Position numbers and translations under genes: made by a program. Positions 1 through 29,014 of a stretch of 64,000 nucleotides of DNA are shown here, piece by piece. How positions within the stretch are numbered: the first letter of the stretch is position 1; every line of letters begins with the position of its first letter. The stretch comes from Candidatus Altiarchaeota archaeon (GTDB lineage: Archaea; Altiarchaeota; Altiarchaeia; IMC4; SCGC-AAA252-I15): contig JAZDNF010000006.1 of the NCBI GenBank assembly GCA_043800255.1, positions 3,901 to 67,900 of the forward strand, read 5' to 3'. Under the pieces are notes generated by a model. It was given only the letters and a program-made list of their open reading frames with translations. It did not search any database and was not told the DNA's origin.

Positions 1-3000
1 GCGTGTTCACCGTGTCAGAGCTCGTCCTGTTCACGGTCAGGATTCTGTCAACTGCCGAGAACCTCTCGTTCTCCCAGAGGTCGGCGCAGAGGACATTCCA
101 GCGGAAGGTGCCATTCGCCATGTCAGCCAGATAGAACCCGTTAACCTGGTTGTTCAACACGCTAACCGTCGTATTGGTCGCAGCCCACGTTCCGGACATG
201 TTCGTGTACAATGAACAGTTAACGACAGAAGCCTTCTGCGAGGCCCTATACTTTATGAAAAGGTTCCCATCATAGTCTGTCAGGCTGCTGGCAGGCTGCT
301 CCAGGCTGACCTGCACAACATACGGCAGGCTCGTCGTGGTGGTCGCATTTATTGTGGTCGTGGTCGAAGACGTTGTGGTCGTTGTCGTATACCCCGAACA
401 GTTCGCCGTACACGAGGAGGTCATGCCAACGTCAGACCAGGTGTAACGTGTCGTGCAGGTGTTATCGTCTCCAGAGCTTTCAGTATAGTAGTAGTCGTAG
501 ATGTCATACTCCGTGGAACCGCACAGGAAGTTGTTGGATATGTTGTTGTAATCCGAGTAGTAGTTGTATATCCCGTATTTGCTCCATGTGACGTTGTTGT
601 TCAATATCGTGTTGTTGCCTGAACTGTAATAGAGGATGATGCCGTCGCCGTCTGCTATGACGTTGCCTGACACCGTATTCAGGTTCGAGTACGCGAACGC
701 TATATGCCCGGCGGCGACGCCATTCAAGGTAACGCCACTAGTGTTGAAATAATAGTACACCGGACGGCCGTTGACCGTATTACTTGTGCCTATGCTGTGA
801 TTGTAATAGGCGAACGAACCGCCGTCTAACCTCAGATTCCAGTCGTTTTTCGAAAAATTGTTCCCAGACAGATTACAGTTGATAGACGCGTACAGGTATG
901 CTCCCTCCTCACTGTTGTTGTAAACTGTGTTGGCTGTTAGATTGTTATTGTTCGAAGAGTACACGTATATCCCCTCGCCCGTGCTATTGTAGACTGTGTT
1001 GTCTTCCAGCCTGTTGTTGGCTGACGAGGAAAGGCTTATCCCATCATATCCGCTGTGCTCCACCCTGTTGCCTGCCATACTGTTGTTGCTCGAAGTGTCC
1101 GAGTCTATGCCGTCCTCGGGCGACATCGAGATGTTGTTCCCTGAAACGTTGTTGGAGTTCGAATAGTACAGGTACACTCCGTCCGCAGAGCTGTTGCGTA
1201 TGTTATTCGAGAAAACGGTATTGTAGTCGGAGTATATGATCCGAACTCCCATTCTGGCATTATTCATGTCGCTGTTTGAGATCGTGCTATTGTAGGAGTT
1301 CCTGTATATCACAGCCCCGTCAGCGTCGGTCAGATTGTTATTCGTTGCTGTGATGTTGCTGCTGAACGCTATACCCAGGTGGCCTACGTACCTGCCCTGC
1401 AGTACTTGGTTGTTTTGGCCGTAGTAGTATCTGACCTGCTTCCCGTTTACCGTGTTGAAGCGGTCTATGGTATGATTGTAGTCGCTGGAAGCGGATGATT
1501 CGACATACAGGCCGGCGCTTCCGCTGTCCTCGAGGGCATTGTACGAGAGAGTCCCTAAAGACGCGCCATACAGGTAGATGCCATAGGCGCCTGAGTTCCG
1601 GATAGTGTTATTCAACAGCGTCACATGGTCTGCGGAAACGTATATCCCATCGGTGTCTGAATTTTCCACGATGTTAAAGCTCGCGTCCGTATAATCTGCG
1701 GACGACAGGTATATTCCCCTGTTGTTGTACCTCAGCGTATTGTTTGAGACGTTGTTCCACTCGCCGTAGTAGATGTAGACCCCGTTCTGCGAGTTGTTCT
1801 CCACGATGTTGTTCTGTATTGTGTTGTTATTGCCTGCGTAGACTGAGATTCCATCATCGAAGGACGAATTCCTGATAGTGTTATGCCGTATCGTGTTGTT
1901 GTTCGAATAGTAGGTGTATATTCCATTGTAAAGCGAGTCCCTGATCGTGTTGTTATTCACCTGGGAATTGTTCGCATAATACAGGATTACGCCATAGTAG
2001 TTGCCTGAGACGTTGTTCCTCTCTATCACGGCATTTCCTGAGCTGATGTAGATTCCATAACCTGAGTAGCTTCCTGCGCTATACCCTACGCCGCTTATCG
2101 TCGAATCCCTTATCGTCAGCGCAGAGCCTGGCATCGCCCTAAACGTATACGCTATCGACGAATTCGATGACCGTATTGTGGAGTTCGTGAAATTCATGGC
2201 AGCCCCGTTCTCGACCGTGATTCCAAACTGGCCGTCCGACGTCCCGTTCAGCACGAGGGTACAGTTTACGGCGGTGAGGCTGTTGCCAGACGTCGCGAGG
2301 ATGCTCCCAGCCATGGTGACAGTCTCATCAGTGCAGTTCGAACTGCCGGACACAACACCCTGCGTCCGCCAGTCGCCTGAGGGAACATTCAGCGTGAAAT
2401 TCACATAAACCGTCTGGTTCGCAACCCCTGTGATCTGCACATTGTTATCGTATGTCTGGTACACGCCGTTAACGAAGACAAGCCACTGCGTTGGCGTGGT
2501 CGGGTAATCAAGTTGCACGGTATATGTTCCGGTATTTAACTGAGTTAACGTGTAGTTGCCTGCCGAGCCCGCAGTTGCGGAGCTTATCGTCGTCGAGCCT
2601 GACAGCAGACTGAGATTCGCGCCCTCGATGGGGTCGCCGTTGGCGTCGAGCACAAGTCCGATGACACTGCCGCTCCTCGGCAGTGTGAAGTTACGATAGG
2701 CAGTCTGGCCGGGAATCACGTACACAGACTCTGTTATGTTCAGAAGCTCCAAACCTGCTGGCGGATTGACCTGGATGTTGTACGTGTTGTTGGCGGCGTT
2801 TGGATAATAGGGATAGGTGTCGTTGTCCAATCCTGTGAGGAGGAAGCTGCCGTTCGCCTCTCCTGTGAACTTCGGGTCCTCGGATGTGACGCCAAGGAAA
2901 TAGTACAGCGTGTGGAGCAGGGGATACGGCACCGGATCCCCATTGTAGTCGAAAACGTACCCTGATATTGAACCCTTCCTCGCAAGCGTGAAATTGACCG

Positions 3001-6000
3001 TGACAGTCTGGCCTGAGGATATCGTGAAGTTGTTACTCGACCAGTTCAGGTTCGCAGACGCTGCTGGGGTGACGGTTATGTTGTTGTCCCCGTCAGCCAG
3101 CCCTATTATTATGTAACTGCCGTTCGCGCTGCTGGAGCCGTAAACTGTCAAGGCGCCAAACACCGACACTGACACATTCGCTGCCGGGTTCCCATCCTCA
3201 TCAAGTATGAAACCAGTGACTGTGGCACCCTGTGACAGGCTCAAATTCGCGTTAGAAGCCTGGGTTCCGTTCACATACACTGTGGTTGAATTCCTCCGGA
3301 AGTTTCCGCCGGACGGGGGATGGGCAGTTACAGTGTAATTGCTGGTTACAAGGCCTGTAATGTTATAATCGCCGCTCGCATTCGTGTATGCTGTCTTACT
3401 AGCGCTTCCTGATGCGGTGACCAATGAACCGTTCACCCCAGAACCGTTGGCGTAGGTTATCCTCCCATAAATCGAGCCGCCTGGATTGAACTGCGTGTAA
3501 TTGTAGGATGATGTGTTGTACAGGTTGTACAATTCGACAGTCTCTCCGCTGCTGTTGACGTACATCGTCAGCCTCGACAGCGCATAGTATGTGTTCCTGC
3601 CCTCCTCCCTGAGGGTCAGACCGTCAAACGGCAGCCTCAGCCAGCTGGTTCCAGCTGACAGGGTGGAGTGGTTGGCTGCTGTAGCAACTCCTGTGCCGTT
3701 CTCATCGGAAACCAATGCAGTTATGTAATAATTGCCATACAGACCGATTGTTAACGCCACGTCAATGTTCAAGTAATCGAAGAACCCATCTCCGTTAGAG
3801 TCTGAGCCGCTGTTGAGGTATGTGCCGTTCGGGTAGCTATCATGGGGCGAGAACTGCGTGTAAGAGTAGTTTGACGTGATATGGACGCTGCCGTATTCTG
3901 CCACGAGGTTGTTGTTGCCGTCCGATACCAGAAGCGTTAGGTTGTAGGGTCCGTTGGTCATCCTGGCGTAGATGTCGCCGCCGCTGAATCCAAGCTGTAT
4001 GCTCCTAAATGTCGCGGAACCTAGGGAGGAAGTGCTGGCCCGCGCCAACAATGTCCCGGTTGAGCTGTAAAGCCTCCCTTCGAAGGAGTATGTGTCGCTT
4101 AATACCGATGTGAAATTCAATGTCACGTTCAGGTACTGATACTTCGAGCTTACGAGGTTCGACAGTGCGCTGGAGTAGTTGACGGAGAAGAACTCTGCAG
4201 CATAGGCATCAAATTGGGTGTAATTGTAGGATGAAGTGCTGTAGACATATCTTGCGACTGTGCTGCTCCCAAGGGATGTGAGAACGTAACCGTCCTTGAG
4301 CTCAAGGGTTATGTTGTAGGGCCCGTTGAGTGTGGCGTTCCTGATGTCCTTGCACTTGAAGCTCAGTTGCAGCTGCTGCACGCTTAATGATGAGTTTGTG
4401 CTGTTGTCTGACGTCGCTATCACGTCGCCCGAAGAGTTTGTGATTGCCCCAAGCACGGTATACTCTTCTCCAATGGTAGTGTTAACGCTCAGATTCAGTA
4501 TCAGATAATCGTACAGGCTGTTGTTGTTCGCATCTATGGCATATGCTGTTACGTTGGAGTTGAATCCCACGCTGTTGCTGTCGAAGTCAGTGTAATTGTA
4601 CGATGATGTCCGGATTCTGGACGGATAAGCGTATACCTGTAAGCTACCGTTTGAGATGTCATACACTGTCAGGCTCATATTGTAGGGGCCGTTCACGCCG
4701 CCGGCGCGTATCGCCTGCCCGGAGAAGTTCAATGAGACGTTCAGTATGCCGGAAGCAGAGTAGACTTGTGTTGACGTTGAGTCGGTAACGTTTCCAGTAG
4801 TGTCATACAGTATCCCCTGCACGCTGTAATTGCCCTGCACCGAGATGTTCAACCCGAGGTACATGCTGAGGAGGTCGTATTTTGTGTTGGAATTGTTGTC
4901 CACCCCGCTGTCAGACTCAGCGCCAGTGTAGAATACGCTAGGATATGAGAAGCTGGTGTAGTTGTATGCTGATGTGTTGTAACCGCTTGTGAAGGCTGCG
5001 GAATTCGTGCCGTTCTGATAGTCCAAATAGGCTTGGGTGAGCTGCAGTGTCCCGTTCAGCATGTTGCTGTAGATGCACGTGCCTGAGAACATGAGGGAGA
5101 GGCTCTGGACTCCAGTAGTTAATGACAGGTCAGAGCTTGCATAGCAGTAGCTTGAGTTCCTGCCGTCATAGAGGAAGCCTGAGAAAGTGTAGTTGCCTGC
5201 CACTGTGACGTTCGCCTGCGCGGTAACGTTCAATGCCTCCCCGATGCCGTCCGAGTTGCTGTCAATTCTGGAGTCCGAAAAGGCTCCAGTAAAGCCTGAA
5301 ACCGATGCGACACTCTTCAACGGCGGCGAGCTTCCGGCGCCCCAAGGCCACCACCACCATGAATCGAAACCATGCCGCCTGAAAATTGTCTTGTACTGGT
5401 ATGATGTGGCTAAGCTTGCGCTGTTGGCCGCCCTGTAGGCGTCGTATACGTTTTCTGCCGTCTGGATATTGCCCCTCTTCAGCGCCGAGATGGTGCTGTC
5501 TGCGCCAAAGTCATTATACACTCCGCACAGTTGGAAGTCCCACACTGGGCCCCGGTATTCATGGGAGTTGGTGACGTTGTCCCCGTCCGTGTCCTCCAGG
5601 TTCGAGATGTCAAGATCCCAACCCCAATTATTATAGTGTGTGGAGCCTCTCGCGATGCATGATGCATAACTCGCCCAGTTCTCTTCAACAGGTTCGTATT
5701 TGTTCTTCCAGTCCCCTGTCTGCGATATGTGGTGGCCGTACTCGTGCTCGACGTCGTCTGTCGTGTCCCTGTCATGCCACATGGTGATGTGGGGGATAAG
5801 CGCGCAGGATGTTGGAACCCCACCGCAGGCGGCATTATCGTTGTTGTTCACCTCAACAAAGATGGTCTCCTTCGTCTCCATGTTCCGGTTCTTGAAATAA
5901 TTGTAGATTCCTATCAGCCTTTCCAAGGCTGAGATCGAGTCATGGACTGCGTATGTGATGTCCCTGCCCAGGAAATCAGCATTCTTCTTTAATGTGCCGG

Positions 6001-7831
6001 AATTGCCAGTCGCCCAGTACGCAACAGCGTTGGCTCTCTTGGCGAACGCAACCCCCCACTGGCTGTCATCGTACATCTCGAACACTATCTTCTCCATGTC
6101 CCTCTCAGGCGACCATTTTACTAGGGAGAGTGTCCTGAACTGCTTGTCTTCGACCATGAACTCCATGTTCGTGCTGAAACAGTAATCGCCCTGCTTGTCT
6201 GTGAAAGTGTCCATGTGATAAATCCAGGCCGCTGCATCGTTCTGCTGCTCGTATCTTACGTTAACGTTCGCGAAACCCGAGCCGTCGTTCTTCTTCACCG
6301 TGCCGCATATCCTGTGGCTTTCGGCATCGTTGTTGTTCTCCTTCAACTCCCTGATATTGTTGTCAGGGTCGACCTGGACTTTTATCACATCCAGGAAGTC
6401 AGGGTCGTTCTCGCCGCCGCGCCACGTCCCATACCAGCTTATGGTCGTCTGGGCCGAGCCATGCGCGGCAATGGAAGCTATAGTCTTCGTTTCGGCCCCG
6501 TACGCCCCAAAGGGCGCTTTTTTCGAAATCTTGACGTTAACGTTCCTTGCGGTGACGTTCCCCTCGTTCCTTACCGTGACTGTGACTGTTATCGGACCAG
6601 ACCGCTTGGCAGGCTTGGATAGGGTTATGTCCTTGTCCGTGACATTGAGATCAGGCTCTCCGACTGTTATCTCGACCTCGTCCATCTTCTCGTAGCTGTT
6701 GACTGTAGGCCAGCACGCGAAGCCTGAGTTGCAGGAGCGTCCGACGACCCTCACAGTGTAGGCGTCGTCTGTCTGCTGCGGAGGCTCTGGTATCTCGGTG
6801 GAGAATGTTCGAGTATAGGTTGCAAGACTATGGTAAAATGATGCGCTGTAAAGCATCCTCCAGTCTGACTCAGAAGGGTATTTGCCATATGCCCTGAAAT
6901 AGAATGTCGGGCAGTAGAACGTTGTAGTGTAAGTGTAACTGATCGTTACGCTATCGCCCGGAGTCGCTGAGCTGGGGCCGCTTGCCGACAGGTAGCTTAT
7001 ATGATAGCCTGCCGCAATGTTGGCTGCGACACTTTTCTCGGTCAGAACAACCCTGCCGCCCCTGTCTTCCACATACTGGAGAAAGGAATCCAGAACGGAG
7101 AGTCTCTCGTAATTCGACCCTGCTATGGAAGGATGCACTACAACCGCTCTGGCCTCTTTTATCTCCTTCTGGTCGAATTCCGCCTTTAGGAACTGGAGGA
7201 AATCCTCGGGAGTGAAGCCCAGGTTGCCTAGTATGACTTTGTCGTCAAGCGGTACCTCGCCAAATAATGTTTTCGCCTCTGCTATCGGCACCACAGTGAC
7301 GCCGTCGAATTCTATTGGATACACTATCCTGCCGCGCCTGACGCAGTACTCGCACTTGAACCCGGAATCAACAGGATGGAATCCTGTCTCGGAGCTGACG
7401 CCCAGAATCCTCAAAGCATCGAGGAGACTTAGGATGTCAGTATAACTGGACTCGTATGACACTGACTTGTAGTGTAGCCGCCCGACATCTGCCGGAGCTA
7501 GTATCTCTTTCAGAAGGTTTAAAGTGCTGTTGAGACTCTCGACTTTCCCGTCAAGAGAGTAGCTCAACATGTCGTCAGAACCCAGAACTGCAATCTGATG
7601 GCCTCTTTCATGTAGGTCTAACACAGTCTCAGGATACGCCAGCATAAGTTCATCGGTCATATAGACTGTGACAATCCAGCCGCGGTCCTCTATCGGCTTC
7701 AGGACACTGTCAAGAAGGCGCAAATCCTGCTCAGTCTGCACGTCAACCTGGAGGATGACATACTTCTGCTCCTGAGCGCTGACGCTGCTGATAAGGCAGA
7801 ATAATGCGACGAACAGTATACCCCTCTTCAT
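1..7831 (-). CDS. Giant secreted multidomain surface protein, 3'-truncated (C-terminus lies beyond position 1; >2610 aa in window). It has a signal peptide, an HExxH zinc-metallopeptidase motif, about five tandem ~120-aa repeat domains, CarboxypepD_reg/Ig-like domains, and right-handed parallel beta-helix (PbH1-type) repeats.
   Basis: Manual minus-strand translation. ATG at 7831 gives MKRGILFVALFCLISSVSAQEQ..., a signal peptide. The frame (coordinate mod 3 = 1) is open at spot checks: ~5729-5746 encodes DDVEHEYGHHISQ, ~1870-1960 encodes NNTIRDSLYNGIYTYYSNNNTIRHNTIRNS, and 58..2 encodes SAVDRILTVNRTSSDTVNT with no stop reached at position 1. Only short ORFs exist in the other frames. The gene is absent from the ORF track because it runs off the edge. 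Confidence 0.8.
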   Translation of the reverse strand, partial: MKRGILFVALFCLISSVSAQEQKYVILQVDVQTEQDLRLLDSVLKPIEDRGWIVTVYMTDELMLAYPETVLDLHERGHQIAVLGSDDMLSYSLDGKVESLNSTLNLLKEILAPADVGRLHYKSVSYESSYTDILSLLDALRILGVSSETGFHPVDSGFKCEYCVRRGRIVYPIEFDGVTVVPIAEAKTLFGEVPLDDKVILGNLGFTPEDFLQFLKAEFDQKEIKEARAVVVHPSIAGSNYERLSVLDSFLQYVEDRGGRVVLTEKSVAANIAAGYHISYLSASGPSSATPGDSVTISYTYTTTFYCPTFYFRAYGKYPSESDWRMLYSASFYHSLATYTRTFSTEIPEPPQQTDDAYTVRVVGRSCNSGFACWPTVNSYEKMDEVEITVGEPDLNVTDKDITLSKPAKRSGPITVTVTVRNEGNVTARNVNVKISKKAPFGAYGAETKTIASIAAHGSAQTTISWYGTWRGGENDPDFLDVIKVQVDPDNNIRELKENNNDAESHRICGTVKKNDGSGFANVNVRYEQQNDAAAWIYHMDTFTDKQGDYCFSTNMEFMVEDKQFRTLSLVKWSPERDMEKIVFEMYDDSQWGVAFAKRANAVAYWATGNSGTLKKNADFLGRDITYAVHDSISALERLIGIYNYFKNRNMETKETIFVEVNNNDNAACGGVPTSCALIPHITMWHDRDTTDDVEHEYGHHISQTGDWKNKYEPVEENWASYASCIARGSTHYNNWGWDLDISNLEDTDGDNVTNSHEYRGPVWDFQLCGVYNDFGADSTISALKRGNIQTAENVYDAYRAANSASLATSYQYKTIFRRHGFDSWWWWPWGAGSSPPLKSVASVSGFTGAFSDSRIDSNSDGIGEALNVTAQANVTVAGNYTFSGFLYDGRNSSYCYASSDLSLTTGVQSLSLMFSGTCIYSNMLNGTLQLTQAYLDYQNGTNSAAFTSGYNTSAYNYTSFSYPSVFYTGAESDSGVDNNSNTKYDLLSMYLGLNISVQGNYSVQGILYDTTGNVTDSTSTQVYSASGILNVSLNFSGQAIRAGGVNGPYNMSLTVYDISNGSLQVYAYPSRIRTSSYNYTDFDSNSVGFNSNVTAYAIDANNNSLYDYLILNLSVNTTIGEEYTVLGAITNSSGDVIATSDNSTNSSLSVQQLQLSFKCKDIRNATLNGPYNITLELKDGYVLTSLGSSTVARYVYSTSSYNYTQFDAYAAEFFSVNYSSALSNLVSSKYQYLNVTLNFTSVLSDTYSFEGRLYSSTGTLLARASTSSLGSATFRSIQLGFSGGDIYARMTNGPYNLTLLVSDGNNNLVAEYGSVHITSNYSYTQFSPHDSYPNGTYLNSGSDSNGDGFFDYLNIDVALTIGLYGNYYITALVSDENGTGVATAANHSTLSAGTSWLRLPFDGLTLREEGRNTYYALSRLTMYVNSSGETVELYNLYNTSSYNYTQFNPGGSIYGRITYANGSGVNGSLVTASGSASKTAYTNASGDYNITGLVTSNYTVTAHPPSGGNFRRNSTTVYVNGTQASNANLSLSQGATVTGFILDEDGNPAANVSVSVFGALTVYGSSSANGSYIIIGLADGDNNITVTPAASANLNWSSNNFTISSGQTVTVNFTLARKGSISGYVFDYNGDPVPYPLLHTLYYFLGVTSEDPKFTGEANGSFLLTGLDNDTYPYYPNAANNTYNIQVNPPAGLELLNITESVYVIPGQTAYRNFTLPRSGSVIGLVLDANGDPIEGANLSLLSGSTTISSATAGSAGNYTLTQLNTGTYTVQLDYPTTPTQWLVFVNGVYQTYDNNVQITGVANQTVYVNFTLNVPSGDWRTQGVVSGSSNCTDETVTMAGSILATSGNSLTAVNCTLVLNGTSDGQFGITVENGAAMNFTNSTIRSSNSSIAYTFRAMPGSALTIRDSTISGVGYSAGSYSGYGIYISSGNAVIERNNVSGNYYGVILYYANNSQVNNNTIRDSLYNGIYTYYSNNNTIRHNTIRNSSFDDGISVYAGNNNTIQNNIVENNSQNGVYIYYGEWNNVSNNTLRYNNRGIYLSSADYTDASFNIVENSDTDGIYVSADHVTLLNNTIRNSGAYGIYLYGASLGTLSYNALEDSGSAGLYVESSASSDYNHTIDRFNTVNGKQVRYYYGQNNQVLQGRYVGHLGIAFSSNITATNNNLTDADGAVIYRNSYNSTISNSDMNNARMGVRIIYSDYNTVFSNNIRNSSADGVYLYYSNSNNVSGNNISMSPEDGIDSDTSSNNSMAGNRVEHSGYDGISLSSSANNRLEDNTVYNSTGEGIYVYSSNNNNLTANTVYNNSEEGAYLYASINCNLSGNNFSKNDWNLRLDGGSFAYYNHSIGTSNTVNGRPVYYYFNTSGVTLNGVAAGHIAFAYSNLNTVSGNVIADGDGIILYYSSGNNTILNNNVTWSKYGIYNYYSDYNNISNNFLCGSTEYDIYDYYYTESSGDDNTCTTRYTWSDVGMTSSCTANCSGYTTTTTTSSTTTTINATTTTSLPYVVQVSLEQPASSLTDYDGNLFIKYRASQKASVVNCSLYTNMSGTWAATNTTVSVLNNQVNGFYLADMANGTFRWNVLCADLWENERFSAVDRILTVNRTSSDTVNT
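3300..5100 (-). repeat. Intragenic tandem repeat, period ~365 bp (~122 aa), about 5 copies, inside the giant surface-protein gene.
   Basis: Recurring DNA motif tgtaattgtaggatgatgt and variants at ~3496, ~3858, ~4218, ~4591 and ~4957 on the plus strand. These encode the repeated peptide motif (T/S)SYNYT(Q/D)F on the minus strand. Confidence 0.6.
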
Positions 7832-9341: not shown

Positions 9342-10169
9342 CTATGATACCAGCCTCTCAATGGGCAGAACCAGTATGTCCTTGCACCCTATCATCTTCA
9401 GCTTTTTGATGGTTGCGAACACCTTGTCCTCGTCGACCACAGAGTGGACTGCCACGAAGTTCCCGTCAGCCAAGTCCATGACCGTGGGACTCTGCATACC
9501 AGGGATTATCTTCTCGACCTTGGCCAGGTTCTTCCGGGGGACGTTTACCATTAGGTACCTCTTGCTCTGTGCGTTTATGACGCTGGAAAGCGAGACCGCC
9601 ATGTTATCGTTCCTGTAGCTTTTGTTGGATATGAGAACAGCCTCGCTGTCCATTATCGTGTCGATTATCTTCAGATTGTTCAACTCCAGAGTGGTTCCAG
9701 TGCTGACTAAATCCACTATCATGTCGGCAACTCCGAGATAGGGTGTGACCTCCGTCGCCCCTGACACCGTCACAATCTCCACCTTCTTGCCAAGCTGCTT
9801 GAAGTATTTCGCAGTCAGCTTCGGGAACTCAGTCGCGACCTTGACTCCGACTTTGACGTCCTTCGGCGACCTCAACCCAAGATTCTTCGGAGCCGCCAGA
9901 ACAAGACGAGTCCTGCCGAAACCCAGCTTCAAGGAAACCCTGACGTCAGCCCCAGTCTCCTCCACCAAATCCAGTCCAGTTATTCCAAGTTCCGCGGCAC
10001 CGTCCCTGACGAGCTCAGGAATGTCCTGAGTCCTCACAAACAGCACCTCGATGTCCTTGTACCGTGAGACCAGCTTCCTGCTGGAGTCCACCCTAATGCC
10101 GGCCTTGTTCAAAAGCTCGACCACCGGCCCGTTCAGCCTACCCTTATTCGGAACCGCGATTTTGACCAT
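9342..10169 (-). CDS. hisG: ATP phosphoribosyltransferase (long form).
   Basis: 275 aa, MVKIAVPNKGRL...GITGLDLVEETGADV...LVSTGTTLELNNLK, a HisG signature pattern. Confidence 0.9.
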   Translation of the reverse strand: MVKIAVPNKGRLNGPVVELLNKAGIRVDSSRKLVSRYKDIEVLFVRTQDIPELVRDGAAELGITGLDLVEETGADVRVSLKLGFGRTRLVLAAPKNLGLRSPKDVKVGVKVATEFPKLTAKYFKQLGKKVEIVTVSGATEVTPYLGVADMIVDLVSTGTTLELNNLKIIDTIMDSEAVLISNKSYRNDNMAVSLSSVINAQSKRYLMVNVPRKNLAKVEKIIPGMQSPTVMDLADGNFVAVHSVVDEDKVFATIKKLKMIGCKDILVLPIERLVS

Positions 10170-10241
10170 CTTCGTTCTTAATCAAAAGTATTATTCGAAT
10201 AAATAGCCAGTATTTTATGATAAAATGCCCCATAGTAACAC

Positions 10242-12773
10242 ATGAGCCAGGGGAACGGGGAAAAGGTGAAAAGCAGGCCTACAACCCCGAAAAAACAAGA
10301 ACAACCTGAAGTCAAAAGCATAGAGCCGAAAAGAATAGAGACGACACAGGACCCTAAGTTCGCATACTCTGAAATCAACGGCATCAAAGTCTTCGGCCCA
10401 AACCCTGTGGAAACCGATGAGAAAGGAGATTTTGTCCACAATTCCACAGTATTCCCCGACGACGGCGTAATAGTGACCTCTCCCAGGATGCACGCCTACC
10501 AAATCCTTAGATATGCGGATTTCCTAGCAGGACAGAGCGGACGACGTCCAGAAGAGGAGGAGAGTAGATTCGCAAACCAGACAGTAAGATGCTTCACGAG
10601 AGGCAAGAAGTATTATATCAGGGTAGAAGAGGAAACTCCGGAGTCGATAGGAAAGTATGCAGCAGCAGCCGAATTATTAGAGAATTTCGTCGAGCCGACA
10701 TCCATAAAGTTCACGGAAATCAGGGATCAGTCGGTTAGAGAGCAATTCAAACGGAGGGGAAAGTACCATCTCGTCGCCCCGGAGCCGATGACAGACGAGG
10801 CTATCAGAGACTACACTGGACACGCTTACGTTCACCTGAATACGGCAAACAGGTACTATCACATGGACTCTGGCGAGCGGCTTCTGACTCCGTCAGAGTT
10901 TGAAAAGATCAGGAGAGACGTAGGAGACAGGGAGAAATTCCTGGGCAGACTCCATGAGATTGTGCAACTAAACGCCGATAAAAAATTACACGAACGGGGA
11001 GAGGTTGAACTTTACAACGTGGACGAACACAGATTCAGCATCCAAAAGGACATCAAAGGGTTTCTTGATATTGCTGAAAAAATCGATGAAACCGGATGGG
11101 ATAAAAGCGACATAAGAACGAAATTCGAATCCCTCGTCGACAGGTTCAGAAATGCCACAAACCCGGAGGACAGGAAAGACAGCATCAACAGCGCAGGATG
11201 GCGTAACAGGATGTACGCCAAACTCAAGGGAATGCCCGGCGAGGAATACCCGACCATGCGCCTTACTCCCGCCCTTTTCATGTACCTAGAATGGTATCCT
11301 GGAGCCGAGATTAAGGACAATAAGATGACATACGACCCAAAGGTCAAACCCGTTGCAAGGGAGATTATAGAACACTTCCATGGCAGATTCCCAAACCTCG
11401 AATACGTCAACATAGGACGCATAAAACACAAACTCGTGGAAGAGACGAAGGTCAGAAGGCCTGGCAGGGAAGTATACCTTGTAATGTTGAGAAACAAGGG
11501 GGAGAAGGAGGAGAGAGCCTTCGAAGTGAGAGAGCAGAAAGTCGATGTGAAATCGATAATCGGCGGATTCCTGAAGGAGGGCAGGATAACCGAAGAAGAC
11601 ATCAGAAACGAAACAGAACAGTATAAACAGTGCCTGAAGGAAGCGCAAAAGAAGTCGCTGGCTTATAAGAACTACGTAAACAACAGGATCATAATCAACA
11701 ACATGCTGGGCATGAGAATGCAAACGCCAGAGCCGTTAAGCCTTGAGAACAGCGAAGAGTACTTTATCTGGAAGTTCATACCAGGCATCGAAACCTCAAG
11801 CATCCCGTCAGTCTACTTCGGAGACAAGAGCTGCGTAACGGAGTCTGCAGTTCAGATGGGAAGGGTTGCCGCAATAAACATGATAACCGGCAGGCGCATG
11901 TTCGACATGGGCACAGAAGTCGCGTCGTTCTCGAAAAGGTTTCTCTCACGCGGACAAAAGCCGGGCGAGATCATGATCGTCGAGCCGGTTACAACGCTCG
12001 AGGAATTAGACAAAAGATTAGACGACCCCGCAAACACGGAGATATACGCCCAAAGCCTCAAAAGAATCCTTTCAAAAGCCGGCGGCGAAGGTCTCGGCGA
12101 CAGAGAGTTCGACGAGATAAAAGGAGCGTTCTACTCGTCCCTTGGGAGAACGTATAATACCATCCGCAACAATTACCTGAAGAATCGTGACGAGTGGAGG
12201 AACCTGTTCGCAAATGTCGAGAAGGACGAGTATGACATACACAACAAATGGCTGAAAGTCCTCGACAGGCTTGAAAAGCACGACGACCCTAGAACTATTA
12301 CAAGAGCGACAGAACAGTGCCTGCAGGAGATCGAGGACATCAGAAAAGTAGAAGCCGGCGAAGGACTCAAGTGGGAGAAGATAGAGAGAGGATACGGGAT
12401 GACGGGAAAACTCGTCAACCAGGCCGGCTTGCACGGCAGACCAGCCAAGACGGTCGCGGCGGCGGTGAAACACTACAAGAACGCTGACAAAAGCCTTGAC
12501 GTGCAAGTCTACGACGACCGTGCTGGAAACTTCGTACCGGCAGAAAGCGTGATAAGTCTCCTCCTCATGGCAGCCACCAAGGGCACGGACCTGCATTTTC
12601 ACGCAACCTGCGACGACGAGAGGATAGCGAAGAGAGTCTTGAACGACATCGGCCACATGATCAACGTCGGGTTCCACGAAACCATGAACGAAAAAGGTTA
12701 CCCGCAATTCAACAGTGAAAAATTGGAGGAAGAGCTAGGCTACCAGCCAGGGGTTTTGAGGATAAAATCGTAG
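10242..12773 (+). CDS. 843-aa protein whose ~720-aa N-terminal region is of unknown function, fused to a C-terminal HPr-like phosphocarrier domain.
   Basis: The C-terminal ~90 aa read GKLVNQAGLHGRPAKTVAAAVKHYKNADKSLDVQVYDDRAGNFVPAESVISLLLMAATKGTDLHFHATCDDERIAKRVLNDIGHMINVGF. This matches the HPr fold pattern including the active-site GLH(A/G)RPA motif, with the His codon at ~12432. The N-terminal region has no P-loop and only weak resemblance to AceK-like atypical kinase motifs (VMLRNKGEKEERAFEVREQKV; AAINMITGRRMFDMG). Confidence 0.75.
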   Translation: MSQGNGEKVKSRPTTPKKQEQPEVKSIEPKRIETTQDPKFAYSEINGIKVFGPNPVETDEKGDFVHNSTVFPDDGVIVTSPRMHAYQILRYADFLAGQSGRRPEEEESRFANQTVRCFTRGKKYYIRVEEETPESIGKYAAAAELLENFVEPTSIKFTEIRDQSVREQFKRRGKYHLVAPEPMTDEAIRDYTGHAYVHLNTANRYYHMDSGERLLTPSEFEKIRRDVGDREKFLGRLHEIVQLNADKKLHERGEVELYNVDEHRFSIQKDIKGFLDIAEKIDETGWDKSDIRTKFESLVDRFRNATNPEDRKDSINSAGWRNRMYAKLKGMPGEEYPTMRLTPALFMYLEWYPGAEIKDNKMTYDPKVKPVAREIIEHFHGRFPNLEYVNIGRIKHKLVEETKVRRPGREVYLVMLRNKGEKEERAFEVREQKVDVKSIIGGFLKEGRITEEDIRNETEQYKQCLKEAQKKSLAYKNYVNNRIIINNMLGMRMQTPEPLSLENSEEYFIWKFIPGIETSSIPSVYFGDKSCVTESAVQMGRVAAINMITGRRMFDMGTEVASFSKRFLSRGQKPGEIMIVEPVTTLEELDKRLDDPANTEIYAQSLKRILSKAGGEGLGDREFDEIKGAFYSSLGRTYNTIRNNYLKNRDEWRNLFANVEKDEYDIHNKWLKVLDRLEKHDDPRTITRATEQCLQEIEDIRKVEAGEGLKWEKIERGYGMTGKLVNQAGLHGRPAKTVAAAVKHYKNADKSLDVQVYDDRAGNFVPAESVISLLLMAATKGTDLHFHATCDDERIAKRVLNDIGHMINVGFHETMNEKGYPQFNSEKLEEELGYQPGVLRIKS

Positions 12774-12778
12774 GTTCG

Positions 12779-13894
12779 TCATTTCAAGGCCTTCAACAGA
12801 TCAGCAGAATCATACCTTAATAGGATGTCCCTGTTCCTGCCCCGCTCACCCGTCTTATAGGAAGTGTCTATCAGCTTGTAATGCTCCAGCTTCTGGATGA
12901 TCTGATTGTACTTTTTTATGCCGATTCTCGTGTCCCTGTTGAAGGCTTCGTAGATTTCGCCTGACGACTTTATGTCTGAGGAGGCTATCAGACGCAGAAG
13001 CTCCCCCTCCTCAGCATCCAATGCCCCGACGACCTTCTTAAGGCCGAGCAGCCTGGAACCCTTCTCAAACGCCTCCTCAACATGCTCCTTCGTAACCTTC
13101 TTCGAAGCCTTCGACTCCGCGAGGTATGCGCTCCTCCTCAGCAGGTCTATGCCAACCCTCAGATCACCCTGCGAGAACGTCTTCTCAACGACAATGTCCA
13201 GCACATTCTCGGATACCACGCCAGGATAGAAGCCGAACTTAGCTCGGTTGAGGAGTATCTCCCTGATCTCACTCACAGTATAAGGCTGGAAGAAAATCTC
13301 CTGCGGATTATAAACCGACTTCGTCTTCACATCCAACTGAGACATGTATTTTTCGTCTATCATGATCCCGATTATGCCGACCTTGTCGAAACCGTAGGAG
13401 CTGTGCGCCTTCAACAAGTCCAAGAGAACGCTGTCAACGTTCTTCTCCAAGAACAGGTTGTCGAACTCGTCCAATGCGACAGCCAGCGTCTTCTTCTCCG
13501 AAGTCAATTTCCTGAAAACCCTCTCCTTCACGGACTCCAGAGGCTTGCCGGTGTCAGGAGGACTGTGACCGAACACCTTCTCATGTATCTTAGAGAATAT
13601 GGAAAAGCGGGTGTGACAGTCCTCACAGTTGATGTAAACGGGAAGAAGCCGGGAAGTCTCCTCAGCGACCTGATTGAACAAGTATTTGATGGCAGTAGTC
13701 TTCCCCGTGCCCGGAGGCCCGTGGAGCAACGTATTCAAAGGGCTCACACCCCTCAGACCAGGCTTCAACGCAAGACTCAACCCCCCCAACTGGTCATCCC
13801 TGTGGATGAAATCCTCAGGAACATAGGACGGCGTGAAAACCTCCTCATCCTTGAAGAGCGTCTCATCCGACATGAGGAGTTTAGCCTTTTTCAC
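12779..13894 (-). CDS. cdc6: Orc1/Cdc6 replication initiator (AAA+ ATPase with winged helix).
   Basis: 371 aa with Walker A GPPGTGKT, Walker B LDEFD, and a C-terminal winged-helix region. Confidence 0.9.
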   Translation of the reverse strand: MKKAKLLMSDETLFKDEEVFTPSYVPEDFIHRDDQLGGLSLALKPGLRGVSPLNTLLHGPPGTGKTTAIKYLFNQVAEETSRLLPVYINCEDCHTRFSIFSKIHEKVFGHSPPDTGKPLESVKERVFRKLTSEKKTLAVALDEFDNLFLEKNVDSVLLDLLKAHSSYGFDKVGIIGIMIDEKYMSQLDVKTKSVYNPQEIFFQPYTVSEIREILLNRAKFGFYPGVVSENVLDIVVEKTFSQGDLRVGIDLLRRSAYLAESKASKKVTKEHVEEAFEKGSRLLGLKKVVGALDAEEGELLRLIASSDIKSSGEIYEAFNRDTRIGIKKYNQIIQKLEHYKLIDTSYKTGERGRNRDILLRYDSADLLKALK

Positions 13895-17150: not shown

Positions 17151-18401
17151 CTACTTCTCTCCAGGGTACATCTCCAGAAGCTCTAATGCGTAATCTCCCA
17201 GTTCCGAGCGCACCTGCCCGCCCGGGTTGTCTTTTCTCACTATATGCCTGAGACATCTTCTGGCTGACTCTTTGCTATTCTTGTCGTAGAATTCCTCGTC
17301 ATCAGCCGGCTTGTTCGCCAGATGATAGGGAGTCCTGCCTGCGAGACGGTCTTCGAACTTTCTGATCACTTTTTCTGTGATGATGTCAGGCCGCCGGTCT
17401 ACTATGCCGTTGAACAGCGTCACCATGTCAGATCGGGTAGAGGCTGACAGCAGGTCGCTTACTATGGCGCCCGCAAGATTCTCCATGAAATCCTCAGTAA
17501 GCAACTGGGGACGTGTAGCCGCGACCCCAGTGATATTCTTCAGCATGTGAGTGTACATCCAGCTGTACTGTTCGTTGGTTATGCTCCTGTCAAAGTCTGT
17601 CTTCCGGAAAAACTCGACCGAGTTTCCAGCTGCCCTGGCGACATAGTGTATTTTTTTGGCGAAAGCTCCCATTGGATGCTTCTCCTTTGTGACAATGTCC
17701 CAGAGGTTCTCATCCCTTTTAGAGATTGTAGCACTGGGCAGTATCTCAACCCCATTTTTGTCAAGCGCCTTGTAGACTTCACGGTTCACGTGCTTTAGTT
17801 TGGGGTCGGCGTCGTTCCCTTCCGGAGAGTCCAACAGTTTCCGATACTCTGCCCCAAGAGTCAGCCTCTTCACCATAGTGCCGAACTCGTCAGACGCCAG
17901 GCCCAGTCCCCTGGTGAAGCCGCCTAACGCTTTGACCGCCCGTTCCTTGGGGGTATCATCCGTCTGTATCACGCTTGCCAGCGCCTTCCCAGCGTACTTG
18001 TAAGTGTCATGGTCGGTTTCGATTATGTTATCGTCTCTTATCATCTCAGAGAGGTCTTTTATCGCCAGGTCAGCCCACTTTGACCTCTGAGCAGGCGTCT
18101 TGAAAACTATCCGGCTCAATGCAAAACCAACATAGGATTTCGCCTCCTTGCCTGCGTTGTACTTCCGAAGGGTGTCAACCAGCAGCTTGTATGCCGGCTG
18201 CGCAATCTCATCCGGCCCGTCTATAACGTATTTATCGAGCTTCTTGCAGGCAGAATCCATCTTCTGAGTGTCATCGCCTTCCAGGATGCCCTTAGCCTCA
18301 GCGATAGTTGATAAAGCCTCCATCAGAAAAGGCTCCCTCAACAGGGGGAGCTTGTCAGAGCCGCCACCCTCCAAGTTCAGCTTGACGATTTTAGTGGTCA
18401 T
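17151..18401 (-). CDS. Hypothetical all-alpha protein (416 aa). Its N-terminal 19 aa are identical or near-identical to those of the adjacent paralog.
   Basis: Starts MTTKIVKLNLEGGGSDKLP. 4-nt overlap with the upstream gene. Last gene of a minus-strand operon. Confidence 0.6.
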   Translation of the reverse strand: MTTKIVKLNLEGGGSDKLPLLREPFLMEALSTIAEAKGILEGDDTQKMDSACKKLDKYVIDGPDEIAQPAYKLLVDTLRKYNAGKEAKSYVGFALSRIVFKTPAQRSKWADLAIKDLSEMIRDDNIIETDHDTYKYAGKALASVIQTDDTPKERAVKALGGFTRGLGLASDEFGTMVKRLTLGAEYRKLLDSPEGNDADPKLKHVNREVYKALDKNGVEILPSATISKRDENLWDIVTKEKHPMGAFAKKIHYVARAAGNSVEFFRKTDFDRSITNEQYSWMYTHMLKNITGVAATRPQLLTEDFMENLAGAIVSDLLSASTRSDMVTLFNGIVDRRPDIITEKVIRKFEDRLAGRTPYHLANKPADDEEFYDKNSKESARRCLRHIVRKDNPGGQVRSELGDYALELLEMYPGEK

Positions 18402-19057
18402 TTTGGTCTGGGCCAGATTTTATTCTTGCGATGAAATATCCTAACATCCTCACTTAGGTTAGGCGCCAATTGGAACCTTTTCCCGCCAAGATGTATCTCG
18501 CCTGAGTGAGCATTAGATCCCACATTCATTCCAGCGTCACCATCCACCATCACGGTTGCGCCGTCCAGCTCGCTGCCTAGGCCGTTTTCTGCGCTGCCGT
18601 GTATCGTCACCTTCCCGGACTTCGCACCAAACGCGGCGTAATTCCCGACATCCCCCAGTATCGTAACCTCCTTCTGATTGTCCAAGCAGCTGCAAAGGTA
18701 GTTCAGTTTTGGCAGGCGGGCCACATCCAACACAATATTATTGTCCGGACAGTTGTTGATAAGGGCGCTCAGGAACATTCCAGCCTGAAACTGGAAGTAG
18801 ACTTCAGTATCAGAGTACGAAGGCAATATCACATCGATAAACCTTTGCATTGCATTAGCGTCGACAGAGACGCCAGAGGCGGCTTCTGAAGCATATAGGT
18901 AGTTGAAGTGCCCTGAAACCTGAGAGGTAAAACAGGATTGATGGTATTTCTCGTCCAACATCCCGAGAAGCCTCTCATCCACCCGGTTATCTCTCAACTT
19001 CGGCAGCCTGTCAGAGCCGCCACCCTCCAAGTTCAATTTCACAATCTTAGTGGTCAT
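18398..19057 (-). CDS. GXGXXG beta-helix domain protein (glutamate synthase domain-3 / FwdC-like).
   Basis: 219 aa. N-terminus is MTTKIVKLNLEGGGSDRLP. The C-terminal half reads GDVGNYAAFGAKSGKVTIHGSAENGLGSELDGATVMVDGDAGMNVGSNAHSGEIHLGG, a GXGXXG repeat pattern. Confidence 0.7.
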   Translation of the reverse strand: MTTKIVKLNLEGGGSDRLPKLRDNRVDERLLGMLDEKYHQSCFTSQVSGHFNYLYASEAASGVSVDANAMQRFIDVILPSYSDTEVYFQFQAGMFLSALINNCPDNNIVLDVARLPKLNYLCSCLDNQKEVTILGDVGNYAAFGAKSGKVTIHGSAENGLGSELDGATVMVDGDAGMNVGSNAHSGEIHLGGKRFQLAPNLSEDVRIFHRKNKIWPRPK

Positions 19058-19099
19058 TTGAGTTCTTGGGGTAGATGGTGATTTTGAAATTCCAGCTCT

Positions 19100-19858
19100 T
19101 CACATTATATCGTCGAATAGTTTTTTCGCATTGTTGATGTAGTTGAGATCGTGTTTTATTATATCAGACACTGTCTCCCTGCGCTTTTCATCTGTTATGG
19201 TTTCCGCTTTCTTCAGCCCGTTTTTGAGAATCCGCATCGCCTTCTCGCCTCTCCCAGAGGGTATGGAACGCCCCAGAGGCGGTTTGGACTCGTCGACCAG
19301 TGAGTTGGCGAGCGCTGCCCCCGCCCACTTGTTAGTCTCGTATGTGAAGGCTTCGCCTGTGAGAGCATCCTCGAGGACGTCAAAAACGGATTTAACAATG
19401 TCCTCCCTGTCGCCGGGCGCCAAGACTATGACCTTCCTAAGCCCCTGGGATGCAGCCTGCTTGGCGTCGCTGTCAGTTTCACTGTCGGTTAGAGCCTCGG
19501 TCAGAAGAGCCATACCAGCATTAGCCCTCTTCCAGTCCGGGTCTTTGATTACAACATCTGCGACAGCGTCGGCAGCCTTCAGCTTGTCAGACAGCGTTGC
19601 CTTTGGATTGAATAGGAGTTCCCCTTTTGTGCCAGCCAGTTCAGGCTCCTTTAGGGGAGGCATCTCCGCGGCATCCTTCTGGGGTTTCTTCTCCTGAGGA
19701 GGCATACTGTAGGGTTGCTTCTTCGCCTCCTTCGTCTCCCCCGTGCGGAGGTCAACGGTAAACCTTCTCGGAAGCTGTTTTTCTCTAACCATTTGTCGGT
19801 TTTTTGAGGTAGGTTTCTTTGGGGCCTGCCGCCTGTTTTCCGTTAACGTATACTCCAA
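19100..19858 (-). CDS. Hypothetical protein (252 aa, HEAT-like helical). The true start may be the internal Met near 19792.
   Basis: Complete ORF. Its 5' end overlaps the bactofilin gene by 74 nt in a different frame; if Met23 is the start the overlap is 8 nt. Lys/Pro-rich N-terminal region. Confidence 0.5.
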   Translation of the reverse strand: MEYTLTENRRQAPKKPTSKNRQMVREKQLPRRFTVDLRTGETKEAKKQPYSMPPQEKKPQKDAAEMPPLKEPELAGTKGELLFNPKATLSDKLKAADAVADVVIKDPDWKRANAGMALLTEALTDSETDSDAKQAASQGLRKVIVLAPGDREDIVKSVFDVLEDALTGEAFTYETNKWAGAALANSLVDESKPPLGRSIPSGRGEKAMRILKNGLKKAETITDEKRRETVSDIIKHDLNYINNAKKLFDDIM

Positions 19859-20366
19859 CCTTTGAAGTTGCTCCCTCCTTTGACAGGACGTCGCCCTTCT
19901 CAGCCTCTATCCTATCCTCTGCGGAAACCCTGCCAGACCATGATATGACGCTCATCCTGGCTGACACCTTGTTGGCTGAGATGTCGCCTTCAGCCTGGAT
20001 CTCGCCCCTGGAGGAGGTGATATTCCCTTTCGCCTTTATGCCAGCCCCCCTTGAATGGATGTCGCCTTCGACGTTTATGCTGCCGTCGGCTGTTATCTCA
20101 CCAGCAGCTATGACAGAGTAAGCCTTGAAGTTCTCATGGGGGATGTGAAGTTTACCGTCCGATATAACCGTCTTGGCAGACGCTGATGAGTCCAGGTACA
20201 GGTTCTCGCCCGGCTCTCCTCTGACGACACTATTGTTTCCGCGCACCACAGTATAGGCTTCGCCGCCCACGTCTATGGTCTCCTTCCCGTCAACAACCTT
20301 GATCTCCTCAACATATTCCGTATCTTCCCGCCTTTTGGTTCTTTCAATGCTGCTCATGTTGATCAC
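19785..20366 (-). CDS. Bactofilin-like beta-helical cytoskeletal protein (DUF583 family).
   Basis: 193 aa. The core reads ITADGSINVEGDIHSRGAGIKAKGNITSSRGEIQAEGDISANKVSARMSVISWSGRVSAED, matching the bactofilin winding repeat (G.I..G.I/V). Confidence 0.7.
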   Translation of the reverse strand: MINMSSIERTKRREDTEYVEEIKVVDGKETIDVGGEAYTVVRGNNSVVRGEPGENLYLDSSASAKTVISDGKLHIPHENFKAYSVIAAGEITADGSINVEGDIHSRGAGIKAKGNITSSRGEIQAEGDISANKVSARMSVISWSGRVSAEDRIEAEKGDVLSKEGATSKVGVYVNGKQAAGPKETYLKKPTNG

Positions 20367-20437
20367 ATTCTGATATGAATTCGTTTAGCATCCTTAAAGC
20401 CTCAGGCTTCATGCAGTCATCCCTGAAACCATAGTTT

Positions 20438-22753: not shown

Positions 22754-22762
22754 GATTTAGAG

Positions 22763-24514: not shown

Positions 24515-24633
24515 TGTACATGATTTTAAGGAGTTCTGGGATAAATACGCTCACTCCCTGCTTTTCGCCCGCACCAAGTCCAACATAGATTTATTTAAAT
24601 CAAATTCCAATATCCTTCTGAGGTGAGGTCATA

Positions 24634-25863: not shown

Positions 25864-26240
25864 AAAACAGGATACTGATAATTGGGATAATAGCGCTGCT
25901 TGTCTTGTCCAGCCCAGGATGCCTCAGAAAATTGAGAGGCGGACAGAGAGCCACCACAATCGTGCCAACGACCATAGCAGAGACTCAACAGGCTGCCCCA
26001 ACAGACGAGGAAGCCTCCGAAGCAGAGCCGATAGCTGACATAACCTCTGAAGAATCCAAGCTGACGCCTCCGGACGTTGACTTAGACTTAGACCTCGAGC
26101 CAACAACGACTGTTGAAACCACCATCCCAGAGGTAATGTCAGACGAAGACCTGGCAGAACTTGATACCATCATAAACAACATCAACACCATAGAAACAGA
26201 ACTGTACGCAGGCGACCTGGACCTGGACATCAGCCTGTGA
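25860..26240 (+). CDS. Small acidic secreted lipoprotein-like protein (126 aa).
   Basis: Signal peptide MKNRILIIGIIALLVLSSPGC, then a D/E/T-rich region. 4-nt overlap with the upstream gene. Confidence 0.5.
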   Translation: MKNRILIIGIIALLVLSSPGCLRKLRGGQRATTIVPTTIAETQQAAPTDEEASEAEPIADITSEESKLTPPDVDLDLDLEPTTTVETTIPEVMSDEDLAELDTIINNINTIETELYAGDLDLDISL

Positions 26241-26351
26241 GCCCCCATTAGTTCCCTTCTTAGGGGACTAGGGCGAGCCACAGGCCGCACCAAGATAACG
26301 GGGGATTGAGAGCAAGGGAATCAGTAAGAAGTCTGGGATTGTCTCTTGCAG

Positions 26352-26374
26352 TCATTGCTCGTCTTTGTGATATA
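26352..26374. repeat. Direct repeat copy 1 (tcattgctcgtctttgtgatata).
   Basis: 22/23 identity to 27269-27291. The match extends ~12 nt further (tctcttgcag versus tctctggcag) across a 6-nt indel. Confidence 0.6.
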
Positions 26375-26432
26375 ACCTTAAAAAAGAGGATATGATAGTA
26401 TTCCTAGATCTATTTGAGGCATAGTGTTGGTT
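26352..26432 (-). pseudogene. Truncated remnant of a relE-like toxin gene 3' end.
   Basis: The minus strand encodes ...NTIISSFLRLYHKDEQ*, bounded by an upstream in-frame stop. This matches the C-terminus of the intact RelE at 27269-27517 (...KIIFLDLYHKDEQ*). The terminal 23 nt are a 22/23 match. Confidence 0.4.
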
Positions 26433-26460
26433 TTATTTTAGCATTTCGATATTTGATGTA

Positions 26461-26955: not shown

Positions 26956-27268
26956 TTATTTAGATTTCTTAATGATTTTAGCTAAATCTTTTGCTATGGT
27001 ATCTAGATTAACCCTGTTAGACACTCCTTTTACCTCAGTTACAGGAATCCGAAAACCATTAACTTTCAGGGTTTTTTTCACCGCATGGATTTGCATAATA
27101 GCTCACCCGTATACAATATAATAGAGGATATAGAACTTAAAAAAGGGCCATTTTTGTTTATTCTACTCAAACGTGCATTTACTTCTTAAAACAGCCTTCT
27201 AGGCAGTATACAGTTAGTTTCTGTTTTTCTGGGCAGCGTTTTTCCATGTTTTTCTCTGGCAGGATCAC

Positions 27269-28960: not shown

Positions 28961-29014
28961 TACATATTAACTCTAGAAAGCCCTTAAAAACACCGCGAGC
29001 AACGGAAAAATAGA

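Follow-up and report, generated by a model that had tools for sequence, protein, structure and literature searches.

Domain architecture of the fusion protein

The subject of this analysis is a single gene on a stretch of 64,000 nucleotides (referred to below as the window) from contig JAZDNF010000006.1 of a Candidatus Altiarchaeota archaeon, which is represented by a metagenome-assembled genome (MAG). The open reading frame (ORF) at 10242..12773 on the plus strand starts with ATG, is uninterrupted, and encodes 843 amino acids (aa) plus a stop codon; the same 843-aa product is recorded at NCBI as [quoted passage not shown] We conclude with high confidence that this real, single ORF joins an HPr-family domain to a member of an unannotated family with a protein-kinase-like (PKL) fold. 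The extension that follows the N-terminal family domain amounts to ~140 aa and consists of a linker of ~15 to 20 aa, the HPr domain, and a 28-aa tail (Table 1).

The original prediction had placed an HPr domain with the motif GLHGRPA and a His codon near 12432 at the C terminus, and the profile searches agree. The Pfam family PTS-HPr (PF00381; PTS, phosphotransferase system) matched aa 724-796 with 32.5 bits (E value, 8.8e-8) and passed its gathering score of 23. In NCBIfam, the matches were solely to HPr-type models, namely, TIGR01003, the HPr domains of FPr, the haloarchaeal HPr model, and NPr; TIGR01003 scored 35.1 bits, which is under its cutoff of 47.9. The GLHGRPA motif corresponds to aa 729-735, in which His731 (codon CAC, 12432-12434) pairs with the active-site His of the NPr/HPr chains of the PDB and of E. 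coli HPr, and Arg733 is the equivalent of Arg17. The alignment of aa 721-803 with NPr/HPr chains (phmmer, PDB) spans the His15 motif, the Ser46 region, and the start of helix C, and it identifies Ser769 (codon 12546-12548) as the Ser46 equivalent, with A-E-S769-V-I-S-L aligning with the "KS(I/L)(M/F)" region of HPr/NPr. The domain has in common with the HPr/NPr family (PF00381 and TIGR01003, including FPr, DhaM, and MTPs) the profile, the motif G-L-H-x-R-P-A, and the equivalents of His15, Arg17, and Ser46, but it carries Gly after the His instead of the usual Ala, Thr, or Ser.

The closest relative of the HPr domain is a free-standing HPr of 126 aa (P0143), which matches aa 723-813 with 32% identity. 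Because this protein is a clear HPr (65.7 bits on the Pfam HPr profile) and has the distinctive segment "HY..D.K..LDVQVY" in common with the fused domain, the latter is, as judged from its sequence, a descendant of a genuine HPr lineage. In the AlphaFold2 (AF2) model, helix A, beta2, beta3, helix B, beta4, and helix C follow one another as they do in HPr/NPr, while beta1 is modeled as a helix; the predicted local distance difference test (pLDDT) values of this part are 50 to 67. There were no HPr chains among the fold matches listed for the whole model, which are dominated by the larger kinase domain.

The N-terminal region belongs to a widespread, unannotated family

The N-terminal ~700 aa had no match in Pfam or NCBIfam, and the query was the only sequence that word-indexed homologue searches retrieved, whether started from the whole protein, the family alignment, or the HPr domain by itself. 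With phmmer, run exhaustively over 1.84 billion cluster representatives, 147 relatives were obtained at E ≤ 1e-3, including 90 at E ≤ 1e-10, the best of which had an E value of 2.4e-65 and 31% identity. Nearly all relatives are stand-alone proteins of ~630 to 700 aa that align with query residues ~45-695, and their source annotation is "hypothetical protein" only. Even at E ≤ 10, no consistent Pfam match was found in the 69 aligned members, and a profile search of the PDB with the N-terminal family alignment yielded no relevant sequence. When one genome per GTDB species was scanned, keyed on one conserved peptide pattern (FD[DM]GDE), the family was found in at least 235 species. The best 80 of these 235 species matches belonged mostly to (i) Planctomycetota, namely, Pirellulales, Planctomycetaceae, Thermoguttaceae, and Phycisphaerales; (ii) Verrucomicrobiota/Opitutia, Kiritimatiellae, and Lentisphaerae; and (iii) in a few cases, Syntrophobacteraceae (Desulfobacterota), Gemmatimonadales, Acidobacteriota, and Eisenbacteria, together with one Woesearchaeota archaeon. 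The domain of ~720 aa that had been described as unknown is thus not an orphan but belongs to a family of ~650-aa proteins found mostly in bacteria of the Planctomycetota-Verrucomicrobiota-Chlamydiota (PVC) superphylum.

Long paralogues are present in Altiarchaeota MAGs (P0051 and P0162); they comprise 940 to 960 aa, contain internal insertions, and have no Pfam match. The loci of the two long paralogues (L014, 6444-9266; L015, 6262-9111) are each monocistronic among housekeeping genes, with PolD genes as neighbors in one, and Asd plus a regulator of the AsnC family in the second. One long Altiarchaeales paralogue bears an unrelated C-terminal tail of 120 aa. All other aligned members end near aa 704 of the query, and the Lys/Glu/Pro-rich N-terminal extension of the query is missing in most members, with a similar one present in the archaeal relative P0004.

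Invariant in the family alignment are His84, Trp351, Asn390, and Glu559, and ~40 more residues are near-invariant. His84 (10491-10493; 69/69 members) is located at a helix N-cap after a beta-strand, within the motif VTxPGIHAxQ. The order beta-alpha-beta-beta-alpha-beta-alpha of aa 76-171 and the position of His84 ("PGIHA" versus "NGLHA") had prompted the idea that this segment is a second HPr-like or an enzyme I (EI)/phosphoenolpyruvate (PEP)-utilizer-like phospho-His domain. This idea was unsupported: hhalign comparisons with E. coli HPr, with the query's own HPr domain, and with E. coli EI all gave probabilities of <1% (~0.1% for aa 40-375 against EI), and the motif G-x-TSHAA of PEP-utilizing enzymes does not occur in the query. 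The original prediction had also stated that the region contains neither a P-loop nor a PEP-utilizer His motif, and the motif search found neither of them, nor HRD or DFG. With these motifs missing and no Pfam or NCBIfam match, the N-terminal part is not EI, EIIA, or HprK.

A kinase-like core with a noncanonical catalytic loop

Secondary structure and conserved motifs delimit a PKL core within this region. At its front, beta1 carries the invariant N390 and G392 and beta3 carries R430-x-x-K433; the middle contains a long alphaC-like helix (Y475, R482) and the hinge-like segment "EYFIWKF"; and the end is formed by "AAINMITGR" (N546, G550, R551) and "FDMGTE" (D555, G557, and the invariant E559). 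Foldseek matched the structural model to Vps34, Bud32, PknS, HipA, COQ8A, and CK1, with probabilities of up to 1.00, and further fold matches included SMG1, Vps34 together with other PI3K/PI4K enzymes, aminoglycoside and macrolide phosphotransferases, WaaP, and Rio1/2. The model of the query has the bilobal architecture of the PKL fold; an AF2 model computed from the single sequence alone had a pLDDT of 35. We are confident that the predicted structure of the N-terminal family contains an atypical PKL fold. The atypical-kinase resemblance proposed from the letters alone holds at the level of the fold, according to both Foldseek and the fold comparison, and the two strings quoted in its support, EERAFEVREQKV (aa 423-434) and AAINMITGRRMFDMG (aa 543-557), overlap two motifs that rank among the most conserved in the family, R430/K433 and AAxN..GR..FDxGxE, respectively.

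The faint likeness to AceK that had been proposed stands in part. Both proteins have a large N-terminal nonkinase region followed by a PKL domain, and hhalign over AceK 364-482 pairs YFERxY with YIERRM, AAAxNxIVGR with LAAANIFPGD, and vFDDGDEI with VVFYDYDEI, so that the catalytic-loop and DFG-like regions align; however, the similarity is not significant at the sequence or profile level (19.5% probability). In this alignment of 19.5% probability, Arg551, which is present in 67/69 members, lies opposite the catalytic Asp457 of AceK, with no conserved Asn after it. The HRD-type Asp and the Asn of the catalytic loop are neither present in the query nor conserved in the family, and "GR" is found there instead. 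In beta3, Lys433 is present in 58/69 and Arg430 in 67/69 members, with the assignment of the lysine and of the metal site based on the same alignment and on secondary structure. The metal-site motif of the family is F-D-D-G-D-E, that is, F554-D555-(D)-G557-(D)-E559, in which the query has Met556 and Thr558. Because Arg551 occupies the position of Asp457, the Asn is missing, and the metal site reads FDDGDE, the family represents an atypical PKL enzyme or, possibly, a pseudokinase-like one whose chemistry differs.

The distance to characterized kinases is large. For actin-fragmin kinase (1cja), PI3K/PI4K (Vps34, 2x6f), Bud32, and Rio, the sequence identity is 6 to 13%. The family differs from the atypical PKL kinases in that (i) no Pfam kinase model matches any of the 69 members (E ≤ 10), (ii) "GR" replaces the HRD loop, (iii) FDDGDE is found and not DFG, and (iv) ~330 conserved N-terminal residues, including the invariant His, have no counterpart.

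State of the fused copy

The query retains His84, Trp351, Asn390, Arg430, Lys433, Arg482, Asn546, Gly550, Arg551, Phe554, Asp555, Gly557, and Glu559. At four other conserved sites, its residue is the only one of its kind among the 69 sequences: Trp510 (Arg in 66), Glu517 (Ala in 58), Ser520 (Lys in 57), and Thr558 (Asp in 62). In addition, Met556 is found where 48/69 members have Asp, and a 7-residue hairpin between Arg551 and Phe554, beside the DFG-like motif, is missing. According to the AceK alignment, several of the near-invariant residues lost are active-site positions. In total, the query keeps 49 of 60 highly conserved columns, compared to a family mean of 56 ± 2.9; the divergence of P0004, an archaeal relative that has no HPr domain, is similar (48/60). 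The kinase-like half is thus divergent and possibly impaired or respecialized, yet not obviously decaying.

Distribution of the fusion

The fusion was found in the query only. Among the 148 representatives, the single other match to the HPr motif was the free-standing P0143, and in none of the 93 other family loci does the gene continue into a C-terminal HPr domain. Two tblastn matches (L018 and L061) appeared to run as far as residue ~800 but were spurious, since both genes end at the C terminus of the family. Scans of GTDB genomes and JGI metagenomes yielded no close relative of the fusion. Described fusions of HPr are to EIIA-Fru, EIIA-Man, and EI, HPr being otherwise free-standing (PMC2405797); in these the partners are PTS modules, whereas the partner in the query is a non-PTS, kinase-like protein. 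The literature search retrieved no description of an HPr domain joined to a kinase-like one. Within the data searched, the arrangement is thus unprecedented, a new domain architecture that appears to be built from two known fold types.

PTS genes in the window

Pfam scans of 50 of the larger ORFs in the window detected no PTS families, ~9 ORFs of ≥120 aa lying outside these scans. Searches with E. coli HPr, EI, and Crr (phmmer) against all six-frame ORFs of ≥50 aa revealed no EI, EIIA, or second HPr, with a limited sensitivity, given that E. coli HPr missed even the window's own HPr domain. HprK and EIIB/EIIC, which were covered by the Pfam scans alone, were likewise not found. The claim that the 64 kb contain no EI, enzyme II (EII), or HprK is therefore in agreement with both approaches, the phmmer searches bearing on EI and EIIA. 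A family hidden Markov model run against the six-frame ORFs of ≥50 aa gave no second copy of the N-terminal family in the window. In a published survey, Archaea have no PTS proteins except for a Haloarcula plasmid cluster (PMC2405797), and we found no report of a PTS in Altiarchaeota.

The only other phospho-signaling genes found in the window encode a HATPase_c histidine-kinase-like protein (52009-53025, plus strand) and, convergent with it, a 421-aa protein with a weak receiver domain (53035-54300, minus strand).

Genomic context of the family

Inspection of the contexts of 15 loci and clustering of the neighbors of 80 loci identified no conserved operon partner of the family, only lineage-specific synteny. 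Signaling genes recur among the neighbors: a histidine kinase/response regulator/Hpt cluster is found in L001, hybrids of histidine kinase and response regulator occur in 12/80 loci, a HATPase_c_2 (anti-sigma-kinase-type) protein and a STAS protein lie beside the family gene in L011, and a large PAS sensor is present in L012. HSP20 is encoded beside the family gene in L004 and L006, in one case with Lon as well, and a phosphoglucomutase-like protein adjoins it in Opitutia and related loci. Mainly in MAGs of the Verrucomicrobiota/PVC group, a divergent pair of genes is located ~1 to 2.5 kb upstream of the family gene; as classified by sequence motifs only, a ~317-aa ATP-grasp-like protein is encoded in nine loci (L024, L042, L043, L045, L046, L050, L059, L070, and L076) and a ~450-aa Mur-ligase-like protein (GTSGKTT) in seven of those. 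This synteny might hint at a substrate pathway. The neighbors as a whole fit a signaling or stress role of the family without proving one.

Possible function and alternative explanations

No EI, EII, or HprK gene lies nearby and the partner has a kinase-like fold; because of these two features, the halves of the protein are likely to form a self-contained regulatory switch. For the protein as a whole, we lean, by a modest degree of belief, toward such a phospho-switch, and not sugar transport, as the best explanation. The regulatory phospho-relay of the original prediction is likewise an inference. More tentatively, regulation may occur in cis: the kinase-like domain would bind ATP and phosphorylate or dephosphorylate the tethered HPr domain, most plausibly at Ser769, or at His731; alternatively, the phosphorylation state of the HPr domain would gate the kinase-like domain. 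In either form, the switch would be independent of EI. The fusion probably arose from an adjacent pair of genes, a kinase-like gene followed by an HPr gene, leaving a Shine-Dalgarno (SD)-like motif and an ATG at Met720. The joining of an HPr domain, its active site intact, to a kinase-like partner in an archaeal genome region where no PTS genes were found suggests that HPr was reused as a regulatory phospho-acceptor.

A number of observations weigh against this interpretation. (i) The fusion is a singleton, one sequence among ~15 billion proteins, and no HPr or EI gene was found within the 6 to 10 kb fetched on each side of the 93 other family loci. (ii) The HPr part of the predicted structure is of low confidence. 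(iii) Neither the canonical catalytic Asp nor the Asn is found in the family, which may thus not be a conventional kinase. (iv) With its substitutions and the 7-residue deletion, the fused copy may be catalytically impaired, and the simple account of a kinase that phosphorylates its own HPr domain is weakened by the losses at active-site residues. (v) The negative result for ptsI and hprK covers the 64-kb window and not the whole genome.

The last point bears on a rather unlikely alternative, in which the HPr domain is charged in trans by an EI or HprK encoded elsewhere and the state of the PTS regulates the kinase-like enzyme. In bacteria, phosphorylated HPr regulates glycerol kinase or PRD regulators. 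The equivalents of His15, Arg17, and Ser46 are all kept, as if a canonical partner still recognized the domain, the window represents 64 kb of a 118.7-kb contig, and PTS parts do exist in archaea, for instance, the Haloarcula cluster (PMC2405797) and the haloarchaeal HPr model NF041319. However, the 64 kb yielded no EI, EII, or HprK, that plasmid cluster is the sole exception to the reported absence of the PTS from Archaea (PMC2405797), and the literature search revealed no link between Altiarchaeota and the PTS. We also considered an accidental fusion, in which the PKL half is a pseudo-enzyme or scaffold and HPr the sole working product, maybe translated from Met720. The singleton status, the GAGAGGA before the ATG of Met720, the retention of 49/60 conserved columns, and the changes R510W, A517E, K520S, and D558T, which the query alone has at sites of ≥83% conservation, together with D556M and the 7-aa deletion, all favor this possibility; yet the invariant H84, W351, N390, and E559 as well as R430, K433, R482, N546, R551, and D555 are kept, P0004 is equally divergent without HPr, no stops or frameshifts occur over 2.5 kb, and the chance rate of an SD-like motif is ~17%. 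On balance, we regard an accidental fusion as improbable.

An artifact, in which the loss of a stop codon or an indel made one gene out of two neighbors in the MAG contig, is very improbable. One contig alone carries the fusion, a look-up of encoding contigs gave no record, and the ATG of Met720 lies inside an ATGA string, as is typical of overlapping stop and start codons. On the other hand, the frame is continuous, and the NCBI annotation contains the same 843-aa product. In each of the two other frames, several stops occur in the 80 nt upstream of Met720, and a single indel would therefore need a very short target stretch. A frameshift artifact was rejected, since no frame but the coding one is open across the junction. 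The GC content at third codon positions is 0.60 in the N-terminal part and 0.68 in the HPr part, compared to 0.64 to 0.76 in host genes; given the closed frames and the host-like composition of both halves, an assembly chimera or simple frameshift appears unlikely. The GAGAGGA motif lies 6 to 12 nt before the in-frame ATG of Met720, which itself is 11 codons before that of His731. Within the window, SD-like motifs stand before operon-internal genes in 5/6 cases and are generally missing before first genes. Motif and Met720 are a weak indication of a fossil of a separate HPr gene or of an internal start.

Returning to the regulatory switch, we note that the partner may outweigh the fusion in interest, since it represents a sizeable family that is undescribed in databases, with a confident kinase-like fold and a noncanonical catalytic loop, and the fusion provides a first testable hypothesis for its substrate or regulator. 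In bacteria, the Ser46 of HPr is the target of the kinase/phosphorylase HprK/P, a P-loop protein. It would be a long shot to propose that the ~650-aa family constitutes a new enzyme class, nucleotide dependent and acting on HPr-type phosphocarriers, either as a PKL-fold analogue of HprK/P or for EI-independent charging, possibly via His84. The proposed likeness to HprK/P is functional only, consisting of a nucleotide-dependent enzyme that would act on HPr independently of EI; the query has no Walker A motif and no Pfam or NCBIfam match to HprK/P, and the PKL fold is unrelated. If the proposal were true, the fusion would be a "Rosetta stone" for the substrate, and a partner not recognized before would be added to the regulatory, nontransport HPr/NPr proteins of Planctomycetota and Verrucomicrobiota. 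The clue is limited, since the fusion is a single case and conserved sites have degenerated in the fused copy.

Gene layout and other features of the window

The coordinates of the gene and its parts are compiled in Table 1. As originally predicted, the ORF map and the Pfam scans place the gene between hisG (9342-10169, minus strand; spacer, 72 nt) and orc1/cdc6 (12779-13894, minus strand; spacer, 5 nt). Genes for EF-1beta and L10e are found upstream along with hisG, and a riboflavin operon lies beyond orc1/cdc6; the gene is thus flanked by housekeeping genes of archaeal type. Because hisG is divergent and orc1/cdc6 convergent, the gene is monocistronic. The TATA-like box, a putative promoter element, suggests a leaderless or near-leaderless, monocistronic transcript.

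TABLE 1 Parts of the fusion gene and its upstream region, with positions in the window
Feature	Positions	Strand	Basis or remark
TATA-like A/T-rich box, ATTTTATGATAAAAT	10212..10226	+	16-30 nt before ATG; read from sequence
Whole coding sequence	10242..12773	+	Divergent from hisG, convergent with orc1/cdc6; without operon partners
Lys/Glu/Pro-rich extension, aa 1-44	10242..10373	+	pLDDT <50 for aa 1-23, ~70 by residue 40
Conserved alpha/beta region with His84 and W351, aa 45-375	10374..11366	+	Alignment; pLDDT ~85-98
Predicted PKL core, aa 376-600	11367..12041	+	Secondary structure and conserved motifs
C-terminal helical region with F656/W670/R676, aa 601-704	12042..12353	+	Alignment, pLDDT >90, hmmsearch envelope ends
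Linker, aa 705-719	12354..12398	+	3' end with SD-like GAGAGGA, 6-12 nt before ATG of Met720
HPr-family domain, aa 720-815	12399..12686	+	Pfam PF00381, PDB HPr/NPr alignments, likeness to P0143
C-terminal tail, aa 816-843, and stop codon	12687..12773	+	No Pfam/NCBIfam matches; low pLDDT

Other parts of the window contain further features. Running off the window start (2-7831, minus strand) is a gene for a secreted protein of >2,610 aa with the signal peptide MKRGILFVALFCLISSVSA; the protein is rich in Ser, Asn, Thr, and Tyr, and Pfam assigns to it five Beta_helix/NosD stretches along with three CarboxypepD_reg domains and a single CARDB domain. A role at the cell surface or in adhesion is probable for this protein of the Altiarchaeota lineage. 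At 17151-26240, eight consecutive ORFs of 126 to 771 aa have no Pfam match except for a Sigma70_r4-type helix-turn-helix in the 771-aa protein (20438-22753). A low-GC island extends over ~26000-38000, with a GC content of 0.35 to 0.47 versus ~0.52 elsewhere. Its genes include a PIN-domain ORF (26461-26955), a gene for a Bro-N protein (28097-28960), several ORFs without matches, a gene for a 989-aa Eco57I/MmeI-type restriction-methylase fusion (30637-33606), and one for a PD-(D/E)XK/Cas4-like nuclease (33682-34899); judging from this gene content and composition, the segment is likely a mobile or defense island.

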